Shown here: piece by piece, positions 1,844 through 42,885 of the stretch
Position numbering within the stretch: the first letter of the stretch is position 1
Layout of the letters: every line of letters begins with the position of its first letter
Source of the DNA: Kiritimatiellia bacterium
GTDB taxonomy: Bacteria > Verrucomicrobiota > Kiritimatiellia > SLAD01
NCBI GenBank assembly: GCA_007134735.1
Contig: SLKG01000082.1
Location: forward strand, 2,731-66,730
Direction of reading: 5' to 3'
Length of the DNA stretch: 64,000 nt
Made by a program: the position numbers and the translations under genes
Notes under the pieces: model-generated
The model's database searches: none
What the model was told of the DNA's origin: nothing
Seen by the model: only the letters and a program-made list of their open reading frames with translations

Positions 1844-3748
1844 TTATCCCCTGTTTATCCAGATGGACAGAATGGCAATATCAGAGGGATTCACACCGGA
1901 AATTCTAGAGGCCTGGCCTAGATTTTCCGGGTGAATTTTCTTCAACTTTTCCCGGGCTTCATACCGCAACGCACGAATGGCATCGTAGTCCAGATCGAGA
2001 GGGATACGTTGGTGCTCGAGCTTTCCCGCTTTTGCAATTCTCTTTTTCTCTCGATCTATATATCCCGAGTATTTGATATTAATCTCAATTTGGGCGACGA
2101 TTTCCGCATCCAAAGATGTATCGTGACCAGGGAGATCATGATACGCAACACCTTGCCTTCGAAGCATTTGTGACAATGATGCGCCGCTCACCCTCGTTGT
2201 TTCCAGTCGATTAATCTCCTCTTCTATTTCCTTTCTATGACTCTTTGTTTCCAGAATTTCCTCATGTGAACAAATTCCAATCCTCTGTGCATGATCTAAA
2301 AGACGAAAACACGCGTTGTCCTGCCTTAATACAAGCCGGTGCTCAGCTCTCGAGGTGAACATTCGATAAGGTTCATCAGTTCCCTTTGTGACTAGATCGT
2401 CAATCAAAACACCCAGGTATCCCTCATGCCGCGTTATGATGAGCGGCTCCTCGCCACGGATCTTTAGCACGGCATTAACCCCCGCAATAAATCCTTGCCC
2501 CGCCGCCTCTTCATATCCGGTAGTTCCGTTAACCTGGCCGGCAAGATATAGATTTTCAACAAGCATAGACTCAAGCGTATGATAAAGCTGCGTCGGATCC
2601 AGGTAATCATACTCAATGGCATAACCGGGCTTTAAGAATACAGCTCCCTCTAATCCCGGAATCGAATGAATCATCTCCTCCTGGACCTCCTGGGGAAGAC
2701 TGTTGGATGTTCCGTTGGGATAGATTTCAGGAGAAATGCGGCCTTCTGGCTCTATGAAGACATGATGCCGATCCCTGTCTCTGAACTTTACAATCTTATC
2801 CTCAATGGAAGGACAATACCGAACACCCGTCCCTTCGATCATCCCCCCGTACAAAGCGCTGCGACCCAAATTCCTTTCAATGATTTGATGGGTTTGCTCC
2901 GTCGTGTGAGTCAAATAACAGTCAATTTGACGAGTCCCGGGAAACCATGGCTTAAGCGGATTCCCCGATTGTTCCACGTGGAACAATTCATCCGTTGCAC
3001 CCGGTCCGGCCTTTTGTTGTTCCACGTGGAACAACCGCCAATCTCGCTTTGCCGCCCGCGAGAAAAACGGAGGGGGATCATATCCCGGCTGGACTTCCAT
3101 TCGACCGAAATTAATGCTTTCCCGATGCAACCTGGGAGGGGTCCCCGTCTTCAGCCTTCCCATTCGAAACCCCAACTTATTAAATGACTGACTTAATTGA
3201 TACGCCCCTTTCTCCCCAAGCCGACCGCCGGGATAACATCGGTCACCAATGTAGATTTTTCCTCCAAGAAACGTGCCTGTCGCGATTATTACACAGCGGC
3301 CAGCGATTCGAGATCCGCCCTCTGTGATCACACCCCTCACTTTTCCATCTTTTATCCACAGGTTACCAACAAGGACCTCGATAACCTCGATATTGGATGT
3401 CATTTGGATGACAGCCTTGATGCGCTCGGGGTAGGCAGTCTTCTCCGACTGAATGCGATGGGCTTGGACGGCGGGTCCTTTTCGGGTGTTCAGGGTTCGA
3501 AACTGGATTCCCGTATAATCCGCATTCCGAGCCATCTCTCCACCCAAGGCATCCAGTTCGCATACAATATGGGATTTCGCCATTCCTCCGATCGATGGAT
3601 TGCATGACATACGGGCAATGGAATCAAAAGAAGCTGTGACCAGTGCCGTGCGAGCCCCCATGCGCGCGGAAGCCAGAGCAGCCTCACAGCCGGCATGACC
3701 CGCACCCACAACAATCACGTCGTACTCTGTGTCAAGATATTTATTCAT
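1844..3748 (-). CDS. mnmG: tRNA uridine-5-carboxymethylaminomethyl(34) synthesis enzyme MnmG (GidA)
   Basis: 634 aa; N-terminal FAD motif [15 protein letters not shown], conserved [11 protein letters not shown] block, full-length colinearity with GidA; carries a ~28-aa in-frame insertion encoded by two palindromes (see parS features). Confidence 0.95.
2970..2985. other. parS-like centromere site (TGTTCCACGTGGAACA), copy 1, inside mnmG
   Basis: Perfect 16-bp palindrome matching ParB-binding parS consensus tGTTNCACGTGAAACa (Pseudomonas-type variant); read in-frame as LFHVEQ. Confidence 0.6.
3018..3033. other. parS-like centromere site (TGTTCCACGTGGAACA), copy 2, inside mnmG
   Basis: Identical 16-bp palindrome 48 bp from copy 1; also encodes LFHVEQ in-frame. 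Confidence 0.6.
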
Positions 3749-3896: not shown

Positions 3897-5357
3897 TTAC
3901 TTCCCTATACAGAAGCGCGAGAAAATATGGTCCAGGAGGTCGTCCTGATAGACGCGGCCGGTAACAGAGCCTATCTGTTCCAGCGCCGATCGCATTCGCG
4001 CAGAAGCCAAGGCCGCCATGTCCTCCCGGCCCGCACCCAGCATCTCGCAAGCGGCCCCCATATCCTCTCGGGCCCCCGCAAGAAAACGGCGATGCCGCTC
4101 CGAGATGGTCGCATGCGGCCGGGCGCCCAAATCTAACCGAGACGAAAGCAAACCACCAACTACACCCCTTATCTCGTCAACACCGAAATCCCCAGCAAGA
4201 CAAGCTTCTATGACAGGGTGGGGCGCAAATACCCCTTTATAATGTATATTTCCCAAGTCTATCTTGTTAATTACAATGATACTACGCCCCACCGGAAGAG
4301 ATGAGATCAATGTTTTGTCGGCGGCGTCCAAAGGTTCATTGGCACTGACCAGGTAGATGGGCAGATCGGCGCGGCGCAGGTGGGCGCGGGTCCGGTCGAT
4401 GCCTTCGCGCTCGATATCGCATTCGGAGTCGCGCAACCCGGCGGTATCGACCAAGCGGAGCGGAATGCCGTTGACGACGAATTCCTCCTCGATGGTGTCG
4501 CGAGTGGTGCCCGGGGACGGGGAGACGATGGCGCGGGCGGTGCCGAGGAGCTTGTTGAGCAGGGTGGATTTGCCCACGTTCGGTCGCCCGGCGATGACGA
4601 CCAATGCGCCGTCGCGCAAAAGATGACCCTCATCCCAGGTTGCGATAAGGGATTCTAGGGTTCGTTCTGCTTCGCGAGCACGCCGGACCAGTTCGGGAAG
4701 CACCTGCTCGGGCAATTCATCCTCCGGGAAATCCAGGGTCGCCTCCAGATCGCCGGCCACGAGCATGATCTGATCGTATATCCCGTTGAATTTCCGGCTC
4801 AAGCCGCCCTCCAATTGATCCAGCGCGGCGGTCGCGGCTCGTTCCGAGCGCGCGCAAATCAGATCCAACACGGCTTCTGCCTGTACCAGATCGATCCGGC
4901 CGTTCAGAAAGGCGCGCTGGGTAAACTCTCCCGGTTCGGCGGGTCGGGCCCCCGCGTCCAGCACGCATCGCAATATGCGGCGGGAACACATGGATCCGCC
5001 GTGACCCTGCAGCTCAACGACATCTTCCCCGGTATAGCTATGCGGTGCGCGCATGACAAGCAGGATGGCCTGATCTATAACCTCTTCTCCATCAACGACA
5101 TGCCCAACAACAAAGGTGTTGGCTGATCGAGCGGAGGGCTTGTCACCCTTGCAAATGAAAACCTGATCGGCAACGCCGAGGGCTTCCGGGCCGGATATCC
5201 GCACGATGGAAATCCCCGCCTCGCCCGGCGCTGTCGCAATAGCCGCGATGGTGTCGTCCGGCACGTGGGGCGCATTGGGGACAGGTACCTCGCTGGGGAT
5301 GGGGACAGAGGACGGCTGGACAGATGGACGGTTGGACGGATGAGTATCAGGGTTCAT
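3897..5357 (-). CDS. mnmE: tRNA modification GTPase MnmE (TrmE)
   Basis: G-domain P-loop GRPNVGKSTL, C-terminal CIGK tetrapeptide typical of MnmE; operon order mnmE-mnmG. ATG at 5357 gives a 35-aa Pro-rich extension; a GTG at 5265 (HVPDDTIAAIATAPG) would give canonical length, so the true start may be 5265. Confidence 0.9.
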   Translation of the reverse strand: MNPDTHPSNRPSVQPSSVPIPSEVPVPNAPHVPDDTIAAIATAPGEAGISIVRISGPEALGVADQVFICKGDKPSARSANTFVVGHVVDGEEVIDQAILLVMRAPHSYTGEDVVELQGHGGSMCSRRILRCVLDAGARPAEPGEFTQRAFLNGRIDLVQAEAVLDLICARSERAATAALDQLEGGLSRKFNGIYDQIMLVAGDLEATLDFPEDELPEQVLPELVRRAREAERTLESLIATWDEGHLLRDGALVVIAGRPNVGKSTLLNKLLGTARAIVSPSPGTTRDTIEEEFVVNGIPLRLVDTAGLRDSECDIEREGIDRTRAHLRRADLPIYLVSANEPLDAADKTLISSLPVGRSIIVINKIDLGNIHYKGVFAPHPVIEACLAGDFGVDEIRGVVGGLLSSRLDLGARPHATISERHRRFLAGAREDMGAACEMLGAGREDMAALASARMRSALEQIGSVTGRVYQDDLLDHIFSRFCIGK

Positions 5358-5444
5358 AAGGGATATATTGAAACCAATTCGGCGAAAAACAAGCGTTTAC
5401 GGGCTCTGCAGTGGTACCTGTCCCCCAAGTCCGTGACCTGAATC

Positions 5445-17876: not shown

Positions 17877-18024
17877 TCGTTCCCCCTTGGAAGTAGGCAT
17901 GGCTTGCGACTCCGGGCCTTTAGCGATGTAACGGATGCCCTTGCCAATTTCTTTCCTGATTACCTGCATTCTGTCAATAATGTCAACAATAATATTCCCG
18001 ATAAGCACCCGGGAAAGTACAAAA

Positions 18025-18057
18025 GTACCTGTCCCTCAGGACCAAAGTACCTGTCCC
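18025..18057. repeat. two tandem copies of 13-mer GGGACAGGTACTTT (reverse orientation) upstream of the acidic giant / Lpd-like genes
   Basis: AAAGTACCTGTCCC at 18022-18035 and 18044-18057, 22-bp period; same core as clusters at 28.0-29.2 kb and 35.0 kb. Confidence 0.7.
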
Positions 18058-18065
18058 TGGTTTTC

Positions 18066-18080
18066 TTCCAACGATTGGAA
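18066..18080. promoter_or_regulatory. 15-bp palindromic operator-like site TTCCAAcgaTTGGAA
   Basis: Perfect inverted repeat; second copy 32 bp downstream; third copy upstream of Fe-ADH at 44195. Confidence 0.45.
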
Positions 18081-18097: not shown

Positions 18098-18112
18098 TTC
18101 CAATGATTGGAA
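18098..18112. promoter_or_regulatory. 15-bp palindromic operator-like site TTCCAAtgaTTGGAA
   Basis: Perfect inverted repeat, 123 bp upstream of the Lpd-like oxidoreductase start. Confidence 0.45.
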
Positions 18113-27912: not shown

Positions 27913-28881
27913 ATGAAGTTCTTAAGCGATTATCCCCAAAAAACTCAAGAGTTTCTCCCGCCCGGAAGCCGATGGCAACCTGCCGGATTAACCGATTTCA
28001 ACAAGACAGACCATCTTTTGTGGCAGGCGCTTGGTCGCGGGGGACAGGTACAGGTATGCGATGTTGCCGACCCGGCGGGATTCGTATCCACGGATCCGAG
28101 AATCGTACTGATTTCCCATGCTCCGGAATCACAGTTCATGGCCGCTACCCGCATCCTTCGGCAGGGGATCTCCCTGCCGGATTCCGTGTTCTGCCTCGCC
28201 TTGGAGGGAAAAGGCTTCCGGGGACAGAGAAACCGGACATGGGAAGCCCTGGCCGGAAATCTACATTTAACCGTTGTGTACCAGGCCGACATCCCCGCAC
28301 GAAACGCCGGCGCGGAGCTAACCATGCTACCCGCCGTGGCCGCTGCCGAAACCACCCGTACCGCCTTGGAGGGACAGGTACCGGAGGGACAGGTACCTGT
28401 CACCATCAAATGGATTAACGACATCCTTATTGACGGCCAGAAGGCGGCTGGCGTGCTGACATCCACACAGATTCGCGGGGATCGGATAACCGGGGTTGTG
28501 TTTGGGGTGGGTATAAATGTCGCGCAGGCGCCTTGTATCGACCCCACCCCGTTTGCACCCTCGGCCACGGCCATTTCCCGTCATGCCCCGTCGCGCGCCC
28601 ATCAATTACCCGATATTTTCCGGGATATAGCCGTCCGAATAGACCGGTATTACAGGAATCTTCAGACTGGCGGACCCTCGACTCTATTTGGGCGATATCG
28701 CAAATATACCGATATTGTGGGCCACCGCGTGTGTATCTGGCCTGAAAATATCTCGGATTGGAAGAAATCCGAGCCATTTGCCTCAGGCACGGTTACCGAA
28801 CTGAAACCTGATCTTTCACTCATATTGGATCACCACCCCGAACCCATCACAAAAGGGCGCCTCGCCTATGAGTCCGCTTGA
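27913..28881 (+). CDS. biotin--protein ligase-like protein (BPL/LPL catalytic domain)
   Basis: GKGFRGQRNRTW (cf. BirA GRGRRGRKW) and KWINDILIDGQKAAGVL (cf. KWPNDLYL.GKKLAGIL); N-terminal 50 aa uncertain; contains three in-frame copies of the GGGACAGGTAC 13-mer (GGQVQV, EGQVPEGQVP). Confidence 0.6.
   Translation: MKFLSDYPQKTQEFLPPGSRWQPAGLTDFNKTDHLLWQALGRGGQVQVCDVADPAGFVSTDPRIVLISHAPESQFMAATRILRQGISLPDSVFCLALEGKGFRGQRNRTWEALAGNLHLTVVYQADIPARNAGAELTMLPAVAAAETTRTALEGQVPEGQVPVTIKWINDILIDGQKAAGVLTSTQIRGDRITGVVFGVGINVAQAPCIDPTPFAPSATAISRHAPSRAHQLPDIFRDIAVRIDRYYRNLQTGGPSTLFGRYRKYTDIVGHRVCIWPENISDWKKSEPFASGTVTELKPDLSLILDHHPEPITKGRLAYESA
28039..28051. repeat. 13-mer GGGGGACAGGTAC copy inside BirA-like gene
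   Basis: Read in-frame as G-G-Q-V. Confidence 0.6.
28371..28398. repeat. two adjacent copies of GGGACAGGTACC inside BirA-like gene
   Basis: gagGGACAGGTACCggagGGACAGGTACCtgtc encoding EGQVPEGQVP. Confidence 0.7.
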
Positions 28882-28882
28882 A

Positions 28883-28893
28883 GGGACAGGTAC
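28883..28893. repeat. 13-mer copy GGGACAGGTAC 2 nt after BirA-like stop codon
   Basis: tgaagGGACAGGTACtgcc. Confidence 0.55.
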
Positions 28894-28930
28894 TGCCACA
28901 TACGTACCCGTTCCCTCGAATCCAACAAAA

Positions 28931-28996: not shown

Positions 28997-29389
28997 ATGA
29001 ATTTTCCGGAAATTATAAAGGGGCTACGGGTTAAGCGGGGGCTCACATTGCGCAAGTTTTGTTTAGGAAACGGGCTTGATCCAAGCAACTGGAGCAAGCT
29101 CGAGCGCGGTCTTCTGGCCCCGCCCCGGGATTCGGAGACATTGGATAAATGGGCGTTATTACTTGGCCTGGAAAGGGATACAGAGGAGTGGCAGGAGTTC
29201 ATGGATGCCGCAGATCTGGAGCGGGGACAGGTACCGCATGATCTTCTCGCCAGCCCGGATCTTCGGGACCGGATCATGTCTTTCCTTAAGGCCATCCGCG
29301 CGGAACAACAAGCGGGGCGGGAAATCCGCGACAGGGAACCTGTGCCCCGCTTTTATGCGCCCAGCTCCAATGACGACTTCATTGATTGA
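28997..29389 (+). CDS. XRE-family helix-turn-helix transcriptional regulator
   Basis: 130 aa; N-terminal HTH_3-like segment LRVKRGLTLRKFCLGNGLDPSNWSKLERG; contains one in-frame 13-mer copy (RGQVP). Confidence 0.6.
   Translation: MNFPEIIKGLRVKRGLTLRKFCLGNGLDPSNWSKLERGLLAPPRDSETLDKWALLLGLERDTEEWQEFMDAADLERGQVPHDLLASPDLRDRIMSFLKAIRAEQQAGREIRDREPVPRFYAPSSNDDFID
29223..29235. repeat. 13-mer GGGGACAGGTACC copy inside XRE regulator gene
   Basis: Read in-frame as G-Q-V-P. Confidence 0.6.
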
Positions 29390-30726: not shown

Positions 30727-33700
30727 TCATTCCATGTCATGGAAACGCACACGATAGAAACGGCGCGGGGCGTCGCCGTTATCCATAATGTCCTCGCCGA
30801 CGGAGATTATGTGCAGATTCGACCATACCGGATGCATCAAGTCGTCCTTGTATTGCACCTCATACACACGGCCCGTAGGCGCTTCAAAGGTGAATTTCCT
30901 GTCGCCGTTCATGAGCATCCGGAACGGGGGAATCGTATCGTCATCCGGATCCAGGTTCATGAAGTAGGAATCGCGATACGTGTATCCGTTTGGCGCCATG
31001 GTCTGTCCCACGTCCGGGTCCGTGTGATCCAGACCGTGCCCGATATAGAAGGAATCCGGCACCCCGTCGTCGTTGCTGTCGGGATCGTCATCCGTCTCGC
31101 GCGTGATCGTTACCGTCACACTCGTCCATACCCCTTCACCCGTGCCCGGCTTCACGATGGACAGGTTGTTGAAATATAGATTTCTTTCGTCGTCCGAACC
31201 GGGGGCATTGCCCGTATAGAGCCGGAAACCACCGAGTTCCTCACCCGTGACGGTGGTGCTCCACGTGTCCGACCATGCCTCGCCCGCACTTGAGCCGCTT
31301 ACCAGAATATCCAAATCTCCCCCGTCCTGCGTGATCTGGAAGTTCAGCACCATGTCGGAATAATAGTCAAAAGGCGATCCTCCATAACCGTCCCCGGTGA
31401 TGTCGAAGTTCCAGATTTCATTCTCATTCGCGAACCCGTCAGGATCAAAGAGGCTCACTCCACGAGCGCCTTCACGCCATTGTACGGCCAGGCTGATGGA
31501 AAACGTGTGCCCATCGCCCCACTCCGTTATACTGCGTTGGGCGTTGGCCCACTGTCCGGAATGCCCAAACAGGCCAAAGGCCACGCCGACCGAATTAATA
31601 TCTCCATGTCCATCCGCCGTGCTGTCACCGATAAAGAAACCGGAATCCGCTCCGTCATCCCACATGTTCCACGCACCGAAGCCGGATCCCTGATTGGCGT
31701 CGGTTTCCCATGCGGGGGGATCGTAGTTATCCGCCCGGTCTTCGCCCACAACTTCTTCCCCGCTGCCCGGAATTTCGCCGGATACGGTAATAACGTTCTG
31801 GCCCACATCCAATGCGATCTCCGGAATGCTCCACGGCGTCGCGACCGGGAGGCTGCCCGACGCCCCGGTCAGGGCGTTGGTCCAGTACAGGTCGCCCTCG
31901 ACATCCTCGGCGATGCCCTGCAGCGTGTAGTTGTCCACTGCGTGCCCCACCACGATATCCGACGGCGGATTCGTGATGACCAGTCCGCTGGGGGGTGGGG
32001 GTTCGTCTTCACAATTTGTCACAGTTACATTCCAGTTGTTTCCGTCGTTGTTGTCCCAACCCTCCGCGCCGTCGTTGAACACAAAGTTGATTTCCTCGGT
32101 TCCCGGCGGGGGGTGGTATGTATACGACCAAACTCCTCCGTCCAGCGTCATGGCCGGGTCAGGAGATAAGACATCCTGCCAATCGTTGCGGCCCACATGG
32201 ATGTACACCTGGGCGGCGCCCGAGATCGGGCGGCCTGACGGATCATAGTAGATGGTGATCGGGTCGCATCCATCCGGGGCCGGCGGATCGGTCCAGACGG
32301 GGCCGTCCGGCGCGCTACAGTCGCGTAGCGTTGTGGACCAGTTGTTGTCGTTGTTGCTGTCCACGATCGACCCGTCCGTGTTTTCAAACCAGACGATCGC
32401 GCTCGGCGCGCCTTCGGGGGGCATGACCGTATAGGACCAGACATTGGCAACCGTCTGCGTCATTTCATACCTAGTCCATGTAATATCCTCGTCAAAACTG
32501 ATCTGCATGAATGCCGGATCAATTCCCTCCAGATCCCCTCCCGTTGCGGAGTAGGTGATGGTCAACGGGGAGCAATCGTTGGGGTCGGGAGAGAAATTGA
32601 CGGTCGGCACGGTTACGCCCTCGCCGTCGTCTTCGACATAGACATGCTGAATGTCCGTCCGGTTGGTATTGCCGCGGGTATCCACGGCTTCGACATAGTA
32701 ATCAAAGAGATTATCGCGGAAGTTCGGCAGGACGGAATCATCAATCCGGACGTAGTACTGATCGGCAATCTGTGGATCAGACCAAAACGCCGGGTCCATC
32801 GGCCAATAGTCAATCTGAGGATTATTAGCGCGCGCATTCAGTTCCGCCCTTGTGCTGGGCAGTACGCGCCTTGTCATCGGGATCCGCACCCAGTCCTCCA
32901 CAGTCGGGCCGCCGGCATAGGTTTCGTTGTCCGTATTGTCCAATGACCGATAACCCGTCTTGGAGCGACGGATCATCAGGTCCGCGCTTTCGATGCCCGA
33001 AATATCGTAGGCCAACGTCCAGATATAGAATTCGGAGGGCATTTGCTTGAGGTAATTGCCGTTTTCGGGTGTCGGATTGAACCAGCCGAAGGTGTAGCCG
33101 CCCGGATTATACGGGAAGCGCTGCGGCACCAGCACGGTCGGAGGCGTACGATCCTCTTCAATGCGCGGTATGACATAACCCTCAAGAGTTTGAACCGTGC
33201 GCTTGGCGGCCAGCGGGGGTTTGACTTCATCGTCGTTCCCCAATCCCCCATAGTATTGGAACCCGGAATCAAGACCGGTCAGGTAGATGTGCCAGCCCAA
33301 CTCCGCCACGTTGGGCGCCCCATCACCCCAGTTCCCCTGCCCGTCCCAGTCGTTCGGATCTTGAATCACCCACGGGCGGACTACGCCGCCGTCATCCACC
33401 CATATCTGTTCGGCGGTCTCCACCCAGTTCGCGCCCGCCATTTTCGGCGCATATGCGAAGAATTTCAGCGCCCACCCATTCTCAATGTCCACTTGCGTGT
33501 TCGGATACATCGTCGGACTGCCCGGCTCGCCGACCGGCGGCTCAATCCATTTCAGGAAGTACGGCGATCCGTAGCACATCTCCGGGAAGATCCAGGCGCC
33601 GTCTTCAATATGCGAAAGCGGCGCGTTGCCGCCGTGTGCATTGACAAAGTCCTGGATCGCGGTGATTTGATAGCCGGAATTCTCCGCATCGCCAAACATT

Positions 33701-34848
33701 TGCGGTGTCGCATTTATCCAGGAATCAAACCCGCCGCCCCATGCATTGTCGCCGTCGGAGGACGGCATCACGATGACAGGCCGACCGGGGTCATTGGCGT
33801 GCGGGGAAATTTGACTGTGAATATGGCCTATGCCCGCATTGGCATAACCGTATTCGTAACTCAGTACATCATCCGACGGGACGGCGATGATGCTGTATTC
33901 TTGTCCGGTTTCGGGATTGACGTGTCGTACGCGATGCAACTGATAGGCGTACGGCGCCACGTTCCATGCTCCCATGCCGGGATTCGGTTCTCCGTACCAC
34001 CACTGGTCCGCATTATTGAATTCCGGGCCGATCTGATCGGCGCGATTCGGCGGGCTGGAGGCAATCCCAAAACTGTCGGGATTGACGAAGTTGTTATAGG
34101 AAGGACTGGTGCGGCTCAAATGGTGACTGGCCACGATGACCCACTCGTATCCCTCTTCGACCAACACATCAATAATACGTGAGGAGAAGGCCATTTCCGT
34201 CGGGAAAAATCCCTTGGAGTGATCGCTCAGATCCATATTGCCGCCCCACGCTTTCCACCAAGCCTGTTTGAATAGCTGGATCTCCTTGCGCAAGACCGAG
34301 CGCGGAAGCAATGGGGTCAGCGAGTGATGATAGGAAAAGCCCACGAGATCCAGGCGCGGGCTACCGGAAGGCGTGGTCCAACCGCGCGCCTGGGTGTTGC
34401 CGGAATTCCAGTCTCCGCTGTACCAGGCACCGTTGGCCGCCAGGTTACGGATATTGTCAATCAGCGAACCGGTATAGCTCATGGCAAAGCCGCCGGCCTC
34501 TCCGATATTCTGCAATGCATCCCGCGGACGGCCCTGATAGGCCGCAATACGATCATCCAGGCTGAAAATCTGGACGAGGTCATTATCCGGATGGCCGCCA
34601 CTATAGGATGTGAGGCCGCCATACGTTTGCCCCGGCTTCCGCTGTATGGAATCGTGGGCATATTGGACACGCAGATACGGACCGGCGCCATCTTCCCAGT
34701 CCGGCCAGTAGATCGGCTGGTGGTTATGCCAGAACCGGGTTACGTGGACATTGCTGTTTGCCGCTGAAATCAAGGGAAAAAAGAGAAACAGGCCTATCAG
34801 AAAGAGTCGGCCCGGCAGGGACGGGAAGCAGAGGGATATCCTTTTCAT
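30727..34848 (-). CDS. giant secreted GH57-family glycoside hydrolase (1373 aa) with long C-terminal beta-rich extension
   Basis: Signal peptide; GH57 signatures FWHNHQPIYWP, FSYHHSLTPLLP, nucleophile-region GFFPTEMAF (cf. WLTERVW) and acid/base-region VMPSSDGDNAWGGG (cf. HDDGEKFG); C-terminal ~70 aa homologous to tail of the 986-aa acidic protein. Confidence 0.75.
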   Translation of the reverse strand: MKRISLCFPSLPGRLFLIGLFLFFPLISAANSNVHVTRFWHNHQPIYWPDWEDGAGPYLRVQYAHDSIQRKPGQTYGGLTSYSGGHPDNDLVQIFSLDDRIAAYQGRPRDALQNIGEAGGFAMSYTGSLIDNIRNLAANGAWYSGDWNSGNTQARGWTTPSGSPRLDLVGFSYHHSLTPLLPRSVLRKEIQLFKQAWWKAWGGNMDLSDHSKGFFPTEMAFSSRIIDVLVEEGYEWVIVASHHLSRTSPSYNNFVNPDSFGIASSPPNRADQIGPEFNNADQWWYGEPNPGMGAWNVAPYAYQLHRVRHVNPETGQEYSIIAVPSDDVLSYEYGYANAGIGHIHSQISPHANDPGRPVIVMPSSDGDNAWGGGFDSWINATPQMFGDAENSGYQITAIQDFVNAHGGNAPLSHIEDGAWIFPEMCYGSPYFLKWIEPPVGEPGSPTMYPNTQVDIENGWALKFFAYAPKMAGANWVETAEQIWVDDGGVVRPWVIQDPNDWDGQGNWGDGAPNVAELGWHIYLTGLDSGFQYYGGLGNDDEVKPPLAAKRTVQTLEGYVIPRIEEDRTPPTVLVPQRFPYNPGGYTFGWFNPTPENGNYLKQMPSEFYIWTLAYDISGIESADLMIRRSKTGYRSLDNTDNETYAGGPTVEDWVRIPMTRRVLPSTRAELNARANNPQIDYWPMDPAFWSDPQIADQYYVRIDDSVLPNFRDNLFDYYVEAVDTRGNTNRTDIQHVYVEDDGEGVTVPTVNFSPDPNDCSPLTITYSATGGDLEGIDPAFMQISFDEDITWTRYEMTQTVANVWSYTVMPPEGAPSAIVWFENTDGSIVDSNNDNNWSTTLRDCSAPDGPVWTDPPAPDGCDPITIYYDPSGRPISGAAQVYIHVGRNDWQDVLSPDPAMTLDGGVWSYTYHPPPGTEEINFVFNDGAEGWDNNDGNNWNVTVTNCEDEPPPPSGLVITNPPSDIVVGHAVDNYTLQGIAEDVEGDLYWTNALTGASGSLPVATPWSIPEIALDVGQNVITVSGEIPGSGEEVVGEDRADNYDPPAWETDANQGSGFGAWNMWDDGADSGFFIGDSTADGHGDINSVGVAFGLFGHSGQWANAQRSITEWGDGHTFSISLAVQWREGARGVSLFDPDGFANENEIWNFDITGDGYGGSPFDYYSDMVLNFQITQDGGDLDILVSGSSAGEAWSDTWSTTVTGEELGGFRLYTGNAPGSDDERNLYFNNLSIVKPGTGEGVWTSVTVTITRETDDDPDSNDDGVPDSFYIGHGLDHTDPDVGQTMAPNGYTYRDSYFMNLDPDDDTIPPFRMLMNGDRKFTFEAPTGRVYEVQYKDDLMHPVWSNLHIISVGEDIMDNGDAPRRFYRVRFHDME

Positions 34849-34966
34849 ATTCTAATCTTTCATAGGTTTTGACACCATAGAATACACGGCACCCGAAACA
34901 AGGTAAAGCGTTTTTTCTCTATATTTTATTCGTTTTTCTTCTTATTCCTCACCGGAATAAACATTA

Positions 34967-35080
34967 TGGGGACAGGTACACTGGCCCACTGGCCGGGCGA
35001 TGGGGACAGGTACCCGGGTGGGTTATCCGGGGGACAGGTACCCGGCCGGCCGTTATGGGTTCCGGGGCGGGGACAGGTAC
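34967..35080. repeat. four tandem copies of 13-mer GGGGACAGGTACC plus one degenerate copy
   Basis: Copies at 34967, 35002, 35030, 35069 (spacing 35/28/39 bp), degenerate GGGGCAGGCTATCC at 35089; between divergent GH57 giant and PUR-like genes. Confidence 0.75.
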
Positions 35081-35217
35081 ACATTTTAGGGGCAGGCTAT
35101 CCGAAACTTGACAGGCGGTGTATTTATACGACGTTAGCGAGGAGAGTGCAACGAGCGCGGCATGCGTACCGGTTCGGGTGACGTGGGCATGATTACCATA
35201 TAGGGAGGTGGGGGTAG

Positions 35218-35436
35218 ATGGACAAGGAACTGGCAAGTGAAAAGATTCAGGTTGAACGCAAACAGTTTTTCTTTGATCTGAAAGAAAACCCGCGTGGGCG
35301 GTTTCTTCGAATTACGGAAGATGTTGGAGGGCGGCGGGATGCCATCATCATTCCTGCTCCGGGACTGAAGTTATTTCGGGATTCGCTGGACCGCGTAATT
35401 GCGGCCAACACAAACGGGGACGAAGACAGCGCGTAA
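35218..35436 (+). CDS. bacterial PUR-alpha-like nucleic-acid-binding protein (DUF3276 family)
   Basis: 72 aa; KIQVERKQFFFDLKENPRGRFLRITE...GGRRDAIIIPAPGL matches PUR repeat pattern; strong GGGAGGTG RBS. Confidence 0.55.
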   Translation: MDKELASEKIQVERKQFFFDLKENPRGRFLRITEDVGGRRDAIIIPAPGLKLFRDSLDRVIAANTNGDEDSA

Positions 35437-35440
35437 CGGT

Positions 35441-37000
35441 TCAGTTCCCCAGCAATATCCCAAGGGATAAGTCATTCAGGATTCCGTGACCTGTTTCAGG
35501 GTTCCATTCCGTTTGCGTGGTTTGCGCAACGGCTTTCTTTAAATCGTTCAGGGCTTGTTCGATAGAGGCTCCCGGGTTTTGCATGAAGTATAAGCCAAGC
35601 GCCCTTGTTACATACGCGCTGGAGATTGAAGTGCCCGCGTATTGACCGGGCGGCCCTTGGTGCCCCACCGAAAACTGCGCCACTCCGGGGGCGGCCAAGT
35701 AAATATGTGCCCCCCGATTGGATTGCGCCCAGGGGGTCCCGTCCGGGTTGGTTGCGCCGATACCGATTACGCCGGGATACGCGGCGGGATACATGGGCTG
35801 TTCGACCCCGTCGTTTCCGGCCGCGGCCACGGGCAACACCTCATTCGCGCGCGCATAGCTCAGCGTATCCGCGAGAAACCGGCTTCGGGTTTCCGACCCC
35901 CAACTTAAATTGATGACGCGCGAACCCTGTTCGATGGCATACACAATACTGCGCATGAGGTGATAATTAGACGTGGCTCCGCGGTCATCAAATATACGAA
36001 CGGCCACAATAGGCAATCCTTGAACTTCTTCCGTCTCGAACCCACCGAACGGCAAAACTGCGCCCGCGGCAATCAGCGCCATTTGTGTTCCGTGCCCGGC
36101 CGGATCCGTCAATGCGCGCCCGGGATCCAACGCATCCAACCCGCCCGCAATCAAGCCTGCGAGTTCCGGCCGAGCGGTCAAACCGGAATCCAATATGGCT
36201 ACCGGACCGACGCCTTCGACCGGAGCCGGCATGCGCCGCGTCTCGGATGCCGCGGGGCTTCCAGGCCGGAAGACATGCGGCGCCGGATCCGGCGCCCTGT
36301 ATACATAATTGGGCTCGGCAACGGCAACCAGCGGATTTCGACCGAGCTGTTCAACCACATCCGGGATATTCGCGCCGGCCGGGAGCCGAATGCGATAGAT
36401 ACCCAATTCCGGAATCCCGCCCAGCACCGTACCCCCCAGTTGGGACAGAAGGCGTTTCAGATCTTCCAGGCTCGCGTCCGGAGAAAAGCCGATCAGGATC
36501 TCGTCCGGTACATACAGGGGTCCTATTCCGTCCGGCCAACGGGCGATCCGCACGTTTCCATCGGCAGGGCCGACATGGCGGACCTTGCCCTGCCGGCCGG
36601 GTTTAAACACATGAAGTTCGGAAAGTTTTGGATAGGCTCCCAGCGGCCCGTTCAATACGTCCCATATCAGTACGTATCCCAAAGGATCCAACAGGATATC
36701 GAGTGCCTGTTCGATATTCGCGTTCTGTACGGTTCCGTTTACCATTCCCGATAATTCCGGATCCGCCTTCACCCGCACCCCGGCCCGAACAAACGATTCG
36801 AGGACGTTCCGTACGGACGCCCCATCGGCATTCAGCCAAAGCCGATCACCGTCGAGCCGAAGCTCCACGGCTGTTTCCCCATACAGCGGCCCGGTCCAGA
36901 GAGAAACCAGGCACAGAACCAGCGCGCAGATTCCCACCGGACATGACCCGCCCGGCTGGGCGCGCAACCCGAAAAAAGAACTCCAACCGCTTTGTTTCAT
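35441..37000 (-). CDS. secreted subtilisin-like S8 serine protease with N-terminal secretin-N/STN-like domain
   Basis: Catalytic triad motifs AILDSG (Asp), GHGTQMA (His), GTSISSAYVT (Ser); signal peptide; residues ~45-115 resemble Secretin_N/STN beta-alpha domain (VRNVLESFVRAGVRV...IEQALDILLDPLGYVL). Confidence 0.85.
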   Translation of the reverse strand: MKQSGWSSFFGLRAQPGGSCPVGICALVLCLVSLWTGPLYGETAVELRLDGDRLWLNADGASVRNVLESFVRAGVRVKADPELSGMVNGTVQNANIEQALDILLDPLGYVLIWDVLNGPLGAYPKLSELHVFKPGRQGKVRHVGPADGNVRIARWPDGIGPLYVPDEILIGFSPDASLEDLKRLLSQLGGTVLGGIPELGIYRIRLPAGANIPDVVEQLGRNPLVAVAEPNYVYRAPDPAPHVFRPGSPAASETRRMPAPVEGVGPVAILDSGLTARPELAGLIAGGLDALDPGRALTDPAGHGTQMALIAAGAVLPFGGFETEEVQGLPIVAVRIFDDRGATSNYHLMRSIVYAIEQGSRVINLSWGSETRSRFLADTLSYARANEVLPVAAAGNDGVEQPMYPAAYPGVIGIGATNPDGTPWAQSNRGAHIYLAAPGVAQFSVGHQGPPGQYAGTSISSAYVTRALGLYFMQNPGASIEQALNDLKKAVAQTTQTEWNPETGHGILNDLSLGILLGN

Positions 37001-41463: not shown

Positions 41464-42114
41464 TCACCGCTTCCGCCGAGTTCGGGCAACATCTCGCGAC
41501 AGGGTGATGATCGTCTTGGGAAGAAAAGGCGCCGCTTCCTTGGGAATGACGATATGGAGCCGGTGCATGGCCCCCGACAAATACGGCAAGTCCGGCGTGT
41601 GGCCGGCATCAAAAATAGATTGCAGGTCGTCCATGTCCTTGGCTCGCAGGCGCGTCGAGGATAAGGCATGCAGCTTGGAGAGAATGACATCTTCGAGCGT
41701 GAGCACCGGCACCGGGCCAAAACCGAAATTCACCTGGTTGAATTGCGCGCGTGTTACGGCCTCCCCAGCCCAGGGAATGGCCGGTAGAAGGATATCAACG
41801 CCTTCTCCGGACGTGTCGTCCTTGGCGCGCCCAAACACCATGAGCGGTTTCGTGCTCTTGCGACGGATAGCGAAGAGCGGGCCGCCCGCCAGATCGGCCT
41901 CGCGGGCTATGCCCGCGTGCAAACCCAATGAACGGATGATTTCCGCGGCCGTTCGAAGTCCCTTCGTCCCGGTTGCTATGACCAAGTCCACATCCATGGT
42001 CAGCCGGGGCTCGCGCCGGTACAGGTCGGCGGCAAACCCGCCGGCCACGGCGAAGGGGACCTTTCTCCTGCGTAGTTCAGCCACGGCCGATTGGAACAGC
42101 TTATCGAGCTTCAT
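41464..42114 (-). CDS. minimal nucleotidyltransferase (AbiEii/DUF1814-like, Pol-beta superfamily)
   Basis: 216 aa; VAGGFAADLY...RLTMDVDLVI = G[GS]..x9-13 DxD NTase motif; overlaps upstream wHTH gene by 14 nt. Confidence 0.5.
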   Translation of the reverse strand: MKLDKLFQSAVAELRRRKVPFAVAGGFAADLYRREPRLTMDVDLVIATGTKGLRTAAEIIRSLGLHAGIAREADLAGGPLFAIRRKSTKPLMVFGRAKDDTSGEGVDILLPAIPWAGEAVTRAQFNQVNFGFGPVPVLTLEDVILSKLHALSSTRLRAKDMDDLQSIFDAGHTPDLPYLSGAMHRLHIVIPKEAAPFLPKTIITLSRDVARTRRKR

Positions 42115-42595: not shown

Positions 42596-42885
42596 CCCCA
42601 TATCAACGAATAACCGTTAATTTTAGGTGGAGGGCGAGGCTCTCGCCGAGCCGGGATCGCTCCGCACGCATCGCCTGTCTCCCGGCTCAGCAGGAGCTTC
42701 GCCCTCCATACCAACGAATAACTGTTGCTTTGTTGTTAAGGGCTGGGGCGAGGCTCTCGCCGAGCCGGGATCGCTCCGCACGCATCGCCTGTCTCACGGC
42801 TCAGCAGGAGCTTCGCCCTCCATCACCAACGAATAACAGTTGCTCTGTTGTTAAGGGCTGGGGCGAGGGTCTTGACGAGCCAGAA
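42596..42885. repeat. tandem array (~116-bp unit x 2.5) of long REP-like hairpins (family 1-related)
   Basis: Units begin CA(T/C)(A/C)CAACGAATAAC(C/T)GTT...; each contains GGAGGGCGAGGCTCTCGCCGAGCCGGGA / TCCCGGCTCAGCAGGAGCTTCGCCCTCC arms around a 25-nt loop; unit-to-unit identity >90%. Confidence 0.75.

Follow-up and report, generated by a model that had tools for sequence, protein, structure and literature searches.

RAYT-like genes, that is, relatives of the transposases associated with repetitive extragenic palindromes (REPs; RAYT, REP-associated tyrosine transposase), that are flanked by terminal inverted repeats (TIRs) and not by REPs have been named TIRtrons, and their enzymes TIRYTs (Di Nocera et al. 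2013, PMC3733652). Many of these TIRs share the sequence GGGGWSAS, and some form moderately abundant families of single, dimeric or grouped units (PMC3733652). Most TIRYTs fall in subclass 2.1 of the TnpA-Y1 enzymes, with the motifs NHVH/NH[YF]H and YIELNP/Y[IV]HLNP, a C-terminal helix-turn-helix (HTH) and the TIR consensus GGGG[AT][CG]A[CG]; REP-like hairpins are not reported for this subclass, whose genes occur in about 15% of genomes at about two copies (Quentin et al. 2018, PMC6006769). RAYT Group 1 is the same set and the most widely distributed RAYT group (21 classes), and its flanking 16-mers are just modestly repeated (Bertels et al. 2017, PMC5581495). Here we analyse a short repeat, GGGGACAGGTAC(C), in a 64-kb stretch of a Kiritimatiellia genome (phylum Verrucomicrobiota; contig SLKG01000082.1, positions 2,731 to 66,730; hereafter the window), where four direct copies lie between the genes for a giant GH57 protein and a small PUR-alpha-like protein. 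We conclude that the copies are probably non-autonomous TIR repeats, members of the TIRYT-associated TIR family, that have been spread by an IS200-like Y1 (HUH) transposase.

The repeat resembles the TIRs of TIRtrons in its GGGGWSAS core, in its occurrence as singles, inverted dimers and groups, in the inward-facing position of the same 12-mer around Y1 genes elsewhere, and in its wide, patchy taxonomy. It differs from them in that this window holds no transposase gene and that the conserved part is merely 12-13 nt. Subclass 2.1 was reported without REP-like structures, whereas in many of the lineages described below the core is the loop of a lineage-specific short stem. Direct arrays of four to nine copies and one exact 12-mer in at least eight phyla are not described in the TIRYT papers that we found; together with the design of a loop on a variable stem they are new relative to those papers, while the kind of element itself is known.

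Classical REPs, bacterial interspersed mosaic elements (BIMEs) and REPINs, with their RAYT (TnpA-REP), are likewise short, mostly intergenic and high-copy, are served by a low-copy domesticated IS200-like Y1 enzyme, and occur as clusters, inverted doublets and occasional in-frame insertions. Unlike the REPs and BIMEs of RAYT subclasses 2.2, 2.4 and 2.5, the window copies have no GT[AG]G (GTAG/GTGG) foot and no 20-40-nt imperfect palindrome. REP/BIME clusters alternate in orientation, whereas the 35-kb and 18-kb clusters here are all direct, and the conserved part is the stem in a classical REP but the loop or end here. Elements of the IS200/IS605 family and their miniature derivatives belong to the same superfamily (HUH, single catalytic tyrosine) and also have ends that are asymmetric at the sequence level; however, their hairpins are subterminal, they lack inverted-repeat ends and they are present in many copies together with their gene, whereas here most copies carry no gene and the ends form true inverted repeats. 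Rickettsia palindromic elements and intragenic REPs show the same tolerance of in-frame insertions in protein surface loops, but the Rickettsia elements are an unrelated sequence family, and the insert here is only 15-30 bp. Plasmid iterons and operator arrays also place several direct copies of a short asymmetric motif between genes; unlike them, this repeat is neither linked to a Rep or regulator gene nor regularly phased, has copies in coding sequence and 3' spacers, and recurs across phyla. An array of clustered regularly interspaced short palindromic repeats (CRISPR), with repeats of 23-50 bp and unique spacers of constant length, was rejected, as it had been in a preliminary description of this region made from its sequence without database searches: the unit is 12-13 nt, the gaps are an irregular 15-26 bp and the copies are dispersed.

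The repeat in the window

The 35-kb array, four direct copies of GGGGACAGGTAC(C/A) of the 'grouped' TIR type, occupies 34968..35081 on the + strand. The copies start at 34968, 35002, 35030 and 35069, that is, at spacings of 34, 28 and 39 bp with gaps of 21, 15 and 26 bp, and are packed within 114 bp. Exact 13-mers are limited to the two middle copies (35002, 35030); the outer two have a final A and not C. The preliminary description had reported these four copies and a degenerate fifth at 35089, all of which are present, but it set the first copy one position too early (34967) and took all four as the same 13-mer.

Allowing up to two mismatches, the 13-mer has 17 matches in the window against 1.16 expected, and none of 100 dinucleotide shuffles reached this number (maximum 5). 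The exact 10-mer core GGACAGGTAC occurs 13 times, at 5279+, 5414-, 18025-, 18047-, 28042+, 28372+, 28387+, 28884+, 29225+, 34970+, 35004+, 35032+ and 35071+. These copies are grouped in five places within 30 kb (5.3-5.4, 18.0, 28.0-28.4, 28.9-29.2 and 35.0 kb), and none was found between 35.1 and 64 kb, the last 29 kb of the window. The 13-mer is a real, non-random repeat family. The earlier estimate of about 11 copies was right in placing the frequency far above the compositional background and in locating copies at 18.0 kb and 28.0-29.2 kb, but it was low and missed the convergent pair at 5.3-5.4 kb. The G+C-rich background is all that favours a compositional or chance oligonucleotide bias; against the counts above, the four copies in 114 bp and the cross-phylum recurrence with a linked gene, we regard such a bias as extremely improbable. 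An element resembling a DNA uptake sequence, as had been proposed, does not agree with the clustering in five places, the empty last 29 kb and the occurrence of the motif across phyla.

GGGGACAG fits GGGG-W-S-A-S in all four array copies and in five of the nine other core copies, and four copies start with AGGG (18.0 kb, 28370, 28385 and 28882). The units are singles (28040, 28882), convergent dimers (5277/5413 and a pair in the left flank) and groups (18.0, 28.37 and 35.0 kb), and every opposite-strand pair, in the window as in the 10 kb to its left, is convergent, with the GGGG ends facing outward. The copies lie in divergent promoter regions, just 3' of stop codons, just 5' of start codons and in frame within two genes, where those at 28372/28387 and 29225 all translate as G-Q-V-P. 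Since copies fill short spacers beside stop and start codons, and since two units form an in-frame insertion of about 8 amino acids in a loop of a biotin ligase, the window copies behave as inserted repeats and not as operators.

These contexts bear directly on the proposal, made in the preliminary description, that the motif is a cis-regulatory element or set of iterons of a secreted-protein regulon, with the XRE protein or the PUR-like protein as candidate regulator. Under this proposal an iteron-like or operator array would bind a regulator governing the PUR-like, GH57 and other secreted-protein genes, and it would account for the four direct copies that precede the PUR-like start by 137-250 nt in a region between divergent genes, for the two copies upstream of another large-protein gene (18.0 kb) and for the copies that flank an XRE-type HTH gene. 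However, copies also lie past stop codons, inside two genes and beside housekeeping genes (before mnmE, and at the biotin ligase), and their irregular spacing has no helical phase. In about 120 motif loci of other genomes, neither an XRE or PUR homologue nor any other recurrent neighbour family accompanies the motif, save a Y1 transposase, and the motif is the published signature of a transposase end. We consider regulator binding sites quite unlikely on these grounds. A tempting regulatory reading is thereby removed, as we found no evidence that the 35-kb array is an element of a secreted-protein regulon.

Motif copies around Y1 transposase genes in other genomes

The motif is not 'genus-specific', as had been suggested, although its description as dispersed, highly iterated and of varying orientation was apt. 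We scanned one genome per species for pairs of GGGACAGGTAC copies separated by 4-34 nt and obtained at least 119 loci in about 60 genomes and at least eight phyla; the taxa among the matches listed are Actinomycetota, Bacillota, Bacteroidota, Verrucomicrobiota (including Kiritimatiellae and Lentisphaeria), Binatia, Acidobacteriota, Pseudomonadota, Nitrospirota and Planctomycetota. Applied to a collection of viral contigs, the real pattern found 20 loci and two composition-matched shuffles found 4 and 5; another shuffled sequence, GGTACAGGGAC, found 35 loci there but is not an independent control, as it shares (Gly-Thr)n coding repeats with the real motif. Apart from such coding repeats, the loci in the genomes are intergenic arrays in which the base ahead of the 11-mer is mostly G. 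Adjacent opposite-strand copies across loci are convergent in 43 cases and divergent in 4, with + copies followed by - copies. Cruder statistics of gene context and orientation were too noisy, because the arrays create false open reading frames (ORFs). A literature search with the literal sequence returned only primers and small interfering RNAs.

An all-against-all BLAST comparison of ORFs within 1.5 kb of the motif gave large clusters of ABC ATPases, histidine kinases and spurious ORFs over the repeats themselves. It also gave one small, phylogenetically scattered cluster that matches PF01797 (IS200-like Y1 transposase, Y1_Tnp), the only neighbour family that recurs. A hidden Markov model made from these Y1 proteins matches at nine motif-selected loci in five genomes (the proteins from which it was built being among the matches), and in Parabacteroides distasonis a truncated copy of the Y1 gene follows an array (tblastn). 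In several phyla, including six of the about 60 genomes of the scan, a Y1 gene is flanked by inward-facing motif copies (loci L082, L104, L106, L108, L078, L046, L065, L097, L083, L117 and L272), and at Y1-linked loci + copies always lie on the left and - copies on the right, irrespective of the strand of the gene. From the published frequency of subclass 2.1, the estimated chance expectation is fewer than 0.1 loci with such a gene among 119 random loci of 8 kb.

The Y1 proteins of these genomes score 25-47 bits against PF01797 (cut-off 23) and match the NCBIfam family NF047646, 'REP-associated tyrosine transposase', with E values of 1e-7 to 1e-20, under its equivalog cut-off. In their alignment the HUH motif reads NHVH, NHFH or NHIH, and the tyrosine motif Y..NP reads YVELNP, YIILNP or YIHRNP; the C-terminal HTH is weak (E 0.04-0.24). 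A protein search with the Lentisphaeria enzyme returned 28 homologues, some of them named 'REP element-mobilizing transposase RayT' or 'transposase' by their source. One of these (P0011), found by the protein search alone, has two exact copies of GGGGACAGGTACC about 200 nt upstream of its gene on metagenomic contigs, and other homologues have duplicated sister cores upstream, for example GGGACAGGTTGA or GGTGACAGATAAA.

We also collected 80 independent metagenomic TIRYT loci solely by similarity to an alphaproteobacterial enzyme, the L082 transposase. GGGGWSAS occurs in forward orientation in 56 of 74 upstream flanks (reversed in 4) and in reversed orientation in 46 of 72 downstream flanks (forward in 5). 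The upstream TIR typically lies about 55 nt ahead of the TIRYT start codon and is often duplicated, with the consensus A(A/G)(T/A)TC(C/T)GGGGACA(C/G)(C/T)ATAC(T)T-A(A/T)(T/C)T-cTTGAC. Within these TIRs, positions -6 to -3 pair with +15 to +18 and covary through A-T/T-A and A-T/G-C exchanges. This covariation is compatible with a small hairpin in single-stranded DNA and, equally, with symmetric half-sites for a dimeric protein.

The Lentisphaeria metagenome-assembled genome (MAG) JAWLHB01 encodes at least five Y1 gene copies (L104, L106, L065, L083 and L097), two of which are about 93% identical, and each lies beside arrays of up to nine motif units (24-26 bp). The Y1 genes of this MAG behave like an insertion sequence and unlike a single-copy domesticated gene.

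In at least 15 lineages the motif is enclosed by a short stem of lineage-specific sequence, such as CTGAACCG...CGGTTCAG in a Propionibacteriaceae MAG, GAAACCC...GGGTTT in a Binatia MAG and GGGGACGGAG...CTCCGTCCCC in Coprococcus. The position of the motif in the loop of these hairpins could also point to a role at the RNA level, in which purine-rich GGGGACAGG sites in a 5' leader would be bound by the PUR-like protein (autoregulation) or by a CsrA-type factor (in the manner of a sponge). PUR proteins bind GGN-rich single strands, and 12 of the 13 window copies are sense relative to the local gene, both of which are in keeping with this role. On the other hand, Rfam 15 at the gathering threshold has no match to the repeat in the window or in nine array loci (an E-value threshold returned only chance-level miRNA/pRNA matches, and one tRNA was found besides), and a known structured RNA family was rejected for this lack of a covariance-model match. 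Nor is the motif known to be convincingly complementary to rRNA or tRNA. A CsrB-like sponge and PUR autoregulation were likewise rejected, since the array folds at shuffle level and neither PUR nor XRE homologues lie by arrays elsewhere. A loop on a stem is expected equally for single-stranded DNA recognised by a Y1 transposase, and a role in RNA does not explain why the geometry is strictly convergent or why the repeats flank transposase genes. We regard it as very unlikely.

Proposed origin and spread of the copies

If the copies are TIR repeats, as we consider likely, the 12-mer would be the conserved outer end of the repeat, matching GGGGWSAS, and the copies would exist as singles, as convergent inverted dimers whose GGGG ends point outward, and as local clusters, of which the 35.0-kb array of four copies is one. 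Analogy with Escherichia coli TnpA-REP and IS608, as cited in PMC6006769, suggests that the transposase recognises one strand of the DNA, cuts it at the core or close to it, and religates copies at other, mostly intergenic sites. Gene-less copies would spread in this way; arrays would be built through local re-insertion beside existing copies or through slippage, and short units could persist in frame inside genes. A cognate transposase is presumably present in this genome now or was so formerly. Effects of the repeat on the PUR-like or giant-protein genes would be incidental, for example through a promoter carried by the repeat.

Several observations weigh against this explanation. No Y1 transposase gene was found in the window and 10 kb on each side of it (84 kb), so that the link to a transposase is one that we infer for this genome from others. 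The part shared by the window copies, only 12-13 nt, is below the typical length of a TIR. The exact 10-mer is absent from the 80 metagenomic TIRYT loci; the expectation that relatives of the L082 transposase would carry it was abandoned, because the sister core GGGGACA(C/G)(C/T)ATAC was found in its place, and the link between the exact motif and the transposase comes from about seven genomes. Unrelated repeats that encode Gly-Thr account for part of the cross-genome matches (for example L007, L022 and L073). The window copies have no flanking stems above shuffle level (a stem of at least 5 bp in 31%, compared with 46% in shuffles), and the array shows no folding advantage over shuffles (z = -1.1). 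The five contigs sampled from the population are all 100% identical to the window, four of them spanning the array and one beginning inside it, and among these five there is no strain-level variation in copy number and hence no signal of mobility. The single-strand cut-and-paste step is an analogy, since no biochemical study of a TIRYT was found in the literature searched, where only two papers mention these enzymes. Finally, four direct copies lying 137-250 nt upstream of a gene may have acquired a regulatory role by co-option.

Such co-option is best considered with the degenerate fifth copy, GGGGCAGGCTATCC (35089..35113, +). It starts with GGGGCAGGCTATC at 35089 and has TTGACA 20 nt past its first G, a spacing nearly equal to that of TTGAC after the TIRs upstream of TIRYT genes (GGGGACACCATACTTAATTCTTGAC). 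The fifth copy with its TTGACA may supply a promoter to the PUR-like gene; a simple promoter/terminator scan of 34800-35500 gave no full sigma-70 promoter match near the array. More generally, TIRs of transposase-linked origin might later have been domesticated as portable promoters, terminators or stabilisers of mRNA ends, like classical REPs. Consistent with this, copies are packed against gene ends, the spacing of TTGACA is nearly that of the TIRs, and RAYT systems have been argued to be co-opted by their hosts (PMC5581495); the empty promoter/terminator scan and the lack of stable hairpins in this genome's copies speak against it. Domestication is unlikely in our judgement, and it is compatible with an origin of the copies as transposase-spread TIR repeats, not exclusive of it.

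The origin as TIR repeats assigns the motif to a mobile-repeat system that is known but little studied. A wider pattern is possible, although we put it forward tentatively and hold it to be doubtful. Subclass 2.1/Group 1 RAYTs, reported to have neither REP-like structures nor abundant repeats, would in many phyla be the drivers of repeat families that resemble REPs and BIMEs but have an inverted design. In this design the loop or outer end would be formed by a near-invariant 12-nt core (GGGGACAGGTAC; in a sister clade, GGGGACAnnATAC), and the stem would change between lineages by compensatory substitutions. The units would expand to direct arrays of up to nine copies, find their way in frame into genes and perhaps act as promoter donors (for example to the PUR-like gene). 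If this were true, one 12-nt transposase-end core, accompanied by tandem arrays and by stems that differ between lineages, would have been kept from Actinomycetota to Verrucomicrobiota. It would then help to reveal what is recognised by the RAYT-like transposases of the largest and least understood group, and would offer a simple sequence tag for finding such repeats in MAGs.

Individual copies and neighbouring genes

The array is bordered by the two genes that the preliminary description had named, both outside the element. A GH57/CBM53 protein of 1373 aa is encoded at 30727..34848 (-), and a PUR-alpha-like protein of 72 aa with a single repeat (PurA, PF04845) at 35218..35436 (+). An independent assembly of the same population breaks within the array (the start of contig L005 corresponds to window position 35085), and such arrays may fragment metagenome assemblies.

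The convergent inverted dimer at 5277..5425 consists of GGGGACAGGTACC at 5277-5289 (+) and its exact complement at 5413-5425 (-), with 123 bp between them; the left arm is followed by decayed copies (GGGGACAGAGGAC at 5301). The dimer occupies the spacer between the stop of an M48 peptidase gene (5445) and the likely start of mnmE (a GTG near 5265), one copy lying 22 nt past the peptidase stop and another about 12 nt ahead of the likely mnmE start. The longest ORF of mnmE (minus strand, window 5265-5357) and the public gene call both begin at 5357, which adds an N-terminal extension of 31 aa with a motif copy in it. Residue 36 of this ORF is the first of the TrmE_N domain, and the GTG near 5265 yields a typical MnmE N-terminus; the annotated start is probably too far upstream. 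A second convergent pair, GGGGACAGGTAC and GGGGACAGGTAA about 105 bp apart (L268 18640-18767, contig PWJR01000007.1), lies about 7.2-7.3 kb to the left of the window start, between co-directional genes for a CBM48/alpha-amylase and a HAD hydrolase, and has the same geometry as the pair at 5.3-5.4 kb.

At 18024..18058 (-), two direct copies, AGGGACAGGTACT, in a 22-bp tandem unit lie upstream of the gene for a 1030-aa Big_6 protein. The divergent region between this gene and one for a pyridine-nucleotide disulphide oxidoreductase also contains two copies, 32 bp apart, of a 15-bp palindrome, TTCCAA(C/T)GATTGGAA (18066-18080 and 18098-18112). These palindromes look like an operator pair for a dimeric regulator and are unrelated to the GGGGACAGGTAC motif.

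Upstream of the biotin-ligase-like gene, a single copy, GGGGACAGGTACA, lies at 28040..28052 (+), about 90 nt 5' of the called start (28138). Within this gene, two direct 15-bp units and an overlapping inverted copy (palindrome GACAGGTACCTGTC) lie in frame at 28370..28404. The units at 28370-28399 encode EGQVPEGQVP, which a HMMER alignment with the solved Pyrococcus biotin ligase 1wnl places as the insertion of about 8 aa, immediately before the conserved KW(P/I)ND strand; the repeat is tolerated in frame within an essential-type enzyme. A further single copy at 28882..28894 (+) directly follows the stop codon of this gene (28881), with its 10-mer core 3 nt past the stop, and lies upstream of the XRE gene. 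At 29223..29347, an exact copy (29223-29235, +), in frame in the XRE gene (RGQVP), converges with an inverted copy that has two mismatches (29335-29347, -) and could be a chance match.

Three other observations concern the surroundings of the repeat. Beside an AbiEii-like gene at 41464-42114 (-), positions 42632-42881 contain a direct tandem repeat of about 114 bp, detected as two overlapping matches of 136 bp that are 95% identical. The gidA/mnmG gene (window 1844-3748; L267 and L268 7709-9613) is split into two ORFs in the MAG GCA_003567595.1 and is one ORF of 634 aa in GCA_003559975.1 and in the window; the split is probably a sequencing or assembly frameshift in one MAG. Genes for exosortase EpsH and for EpsI lie about 0.2-1.9 kb past the right end of the window (L271 8088-9772), and their proximity suggests that the 'shared C-terminal module' noted earlier in the giant secreted proteins is a sorting signal of the PEP-CTERM type.

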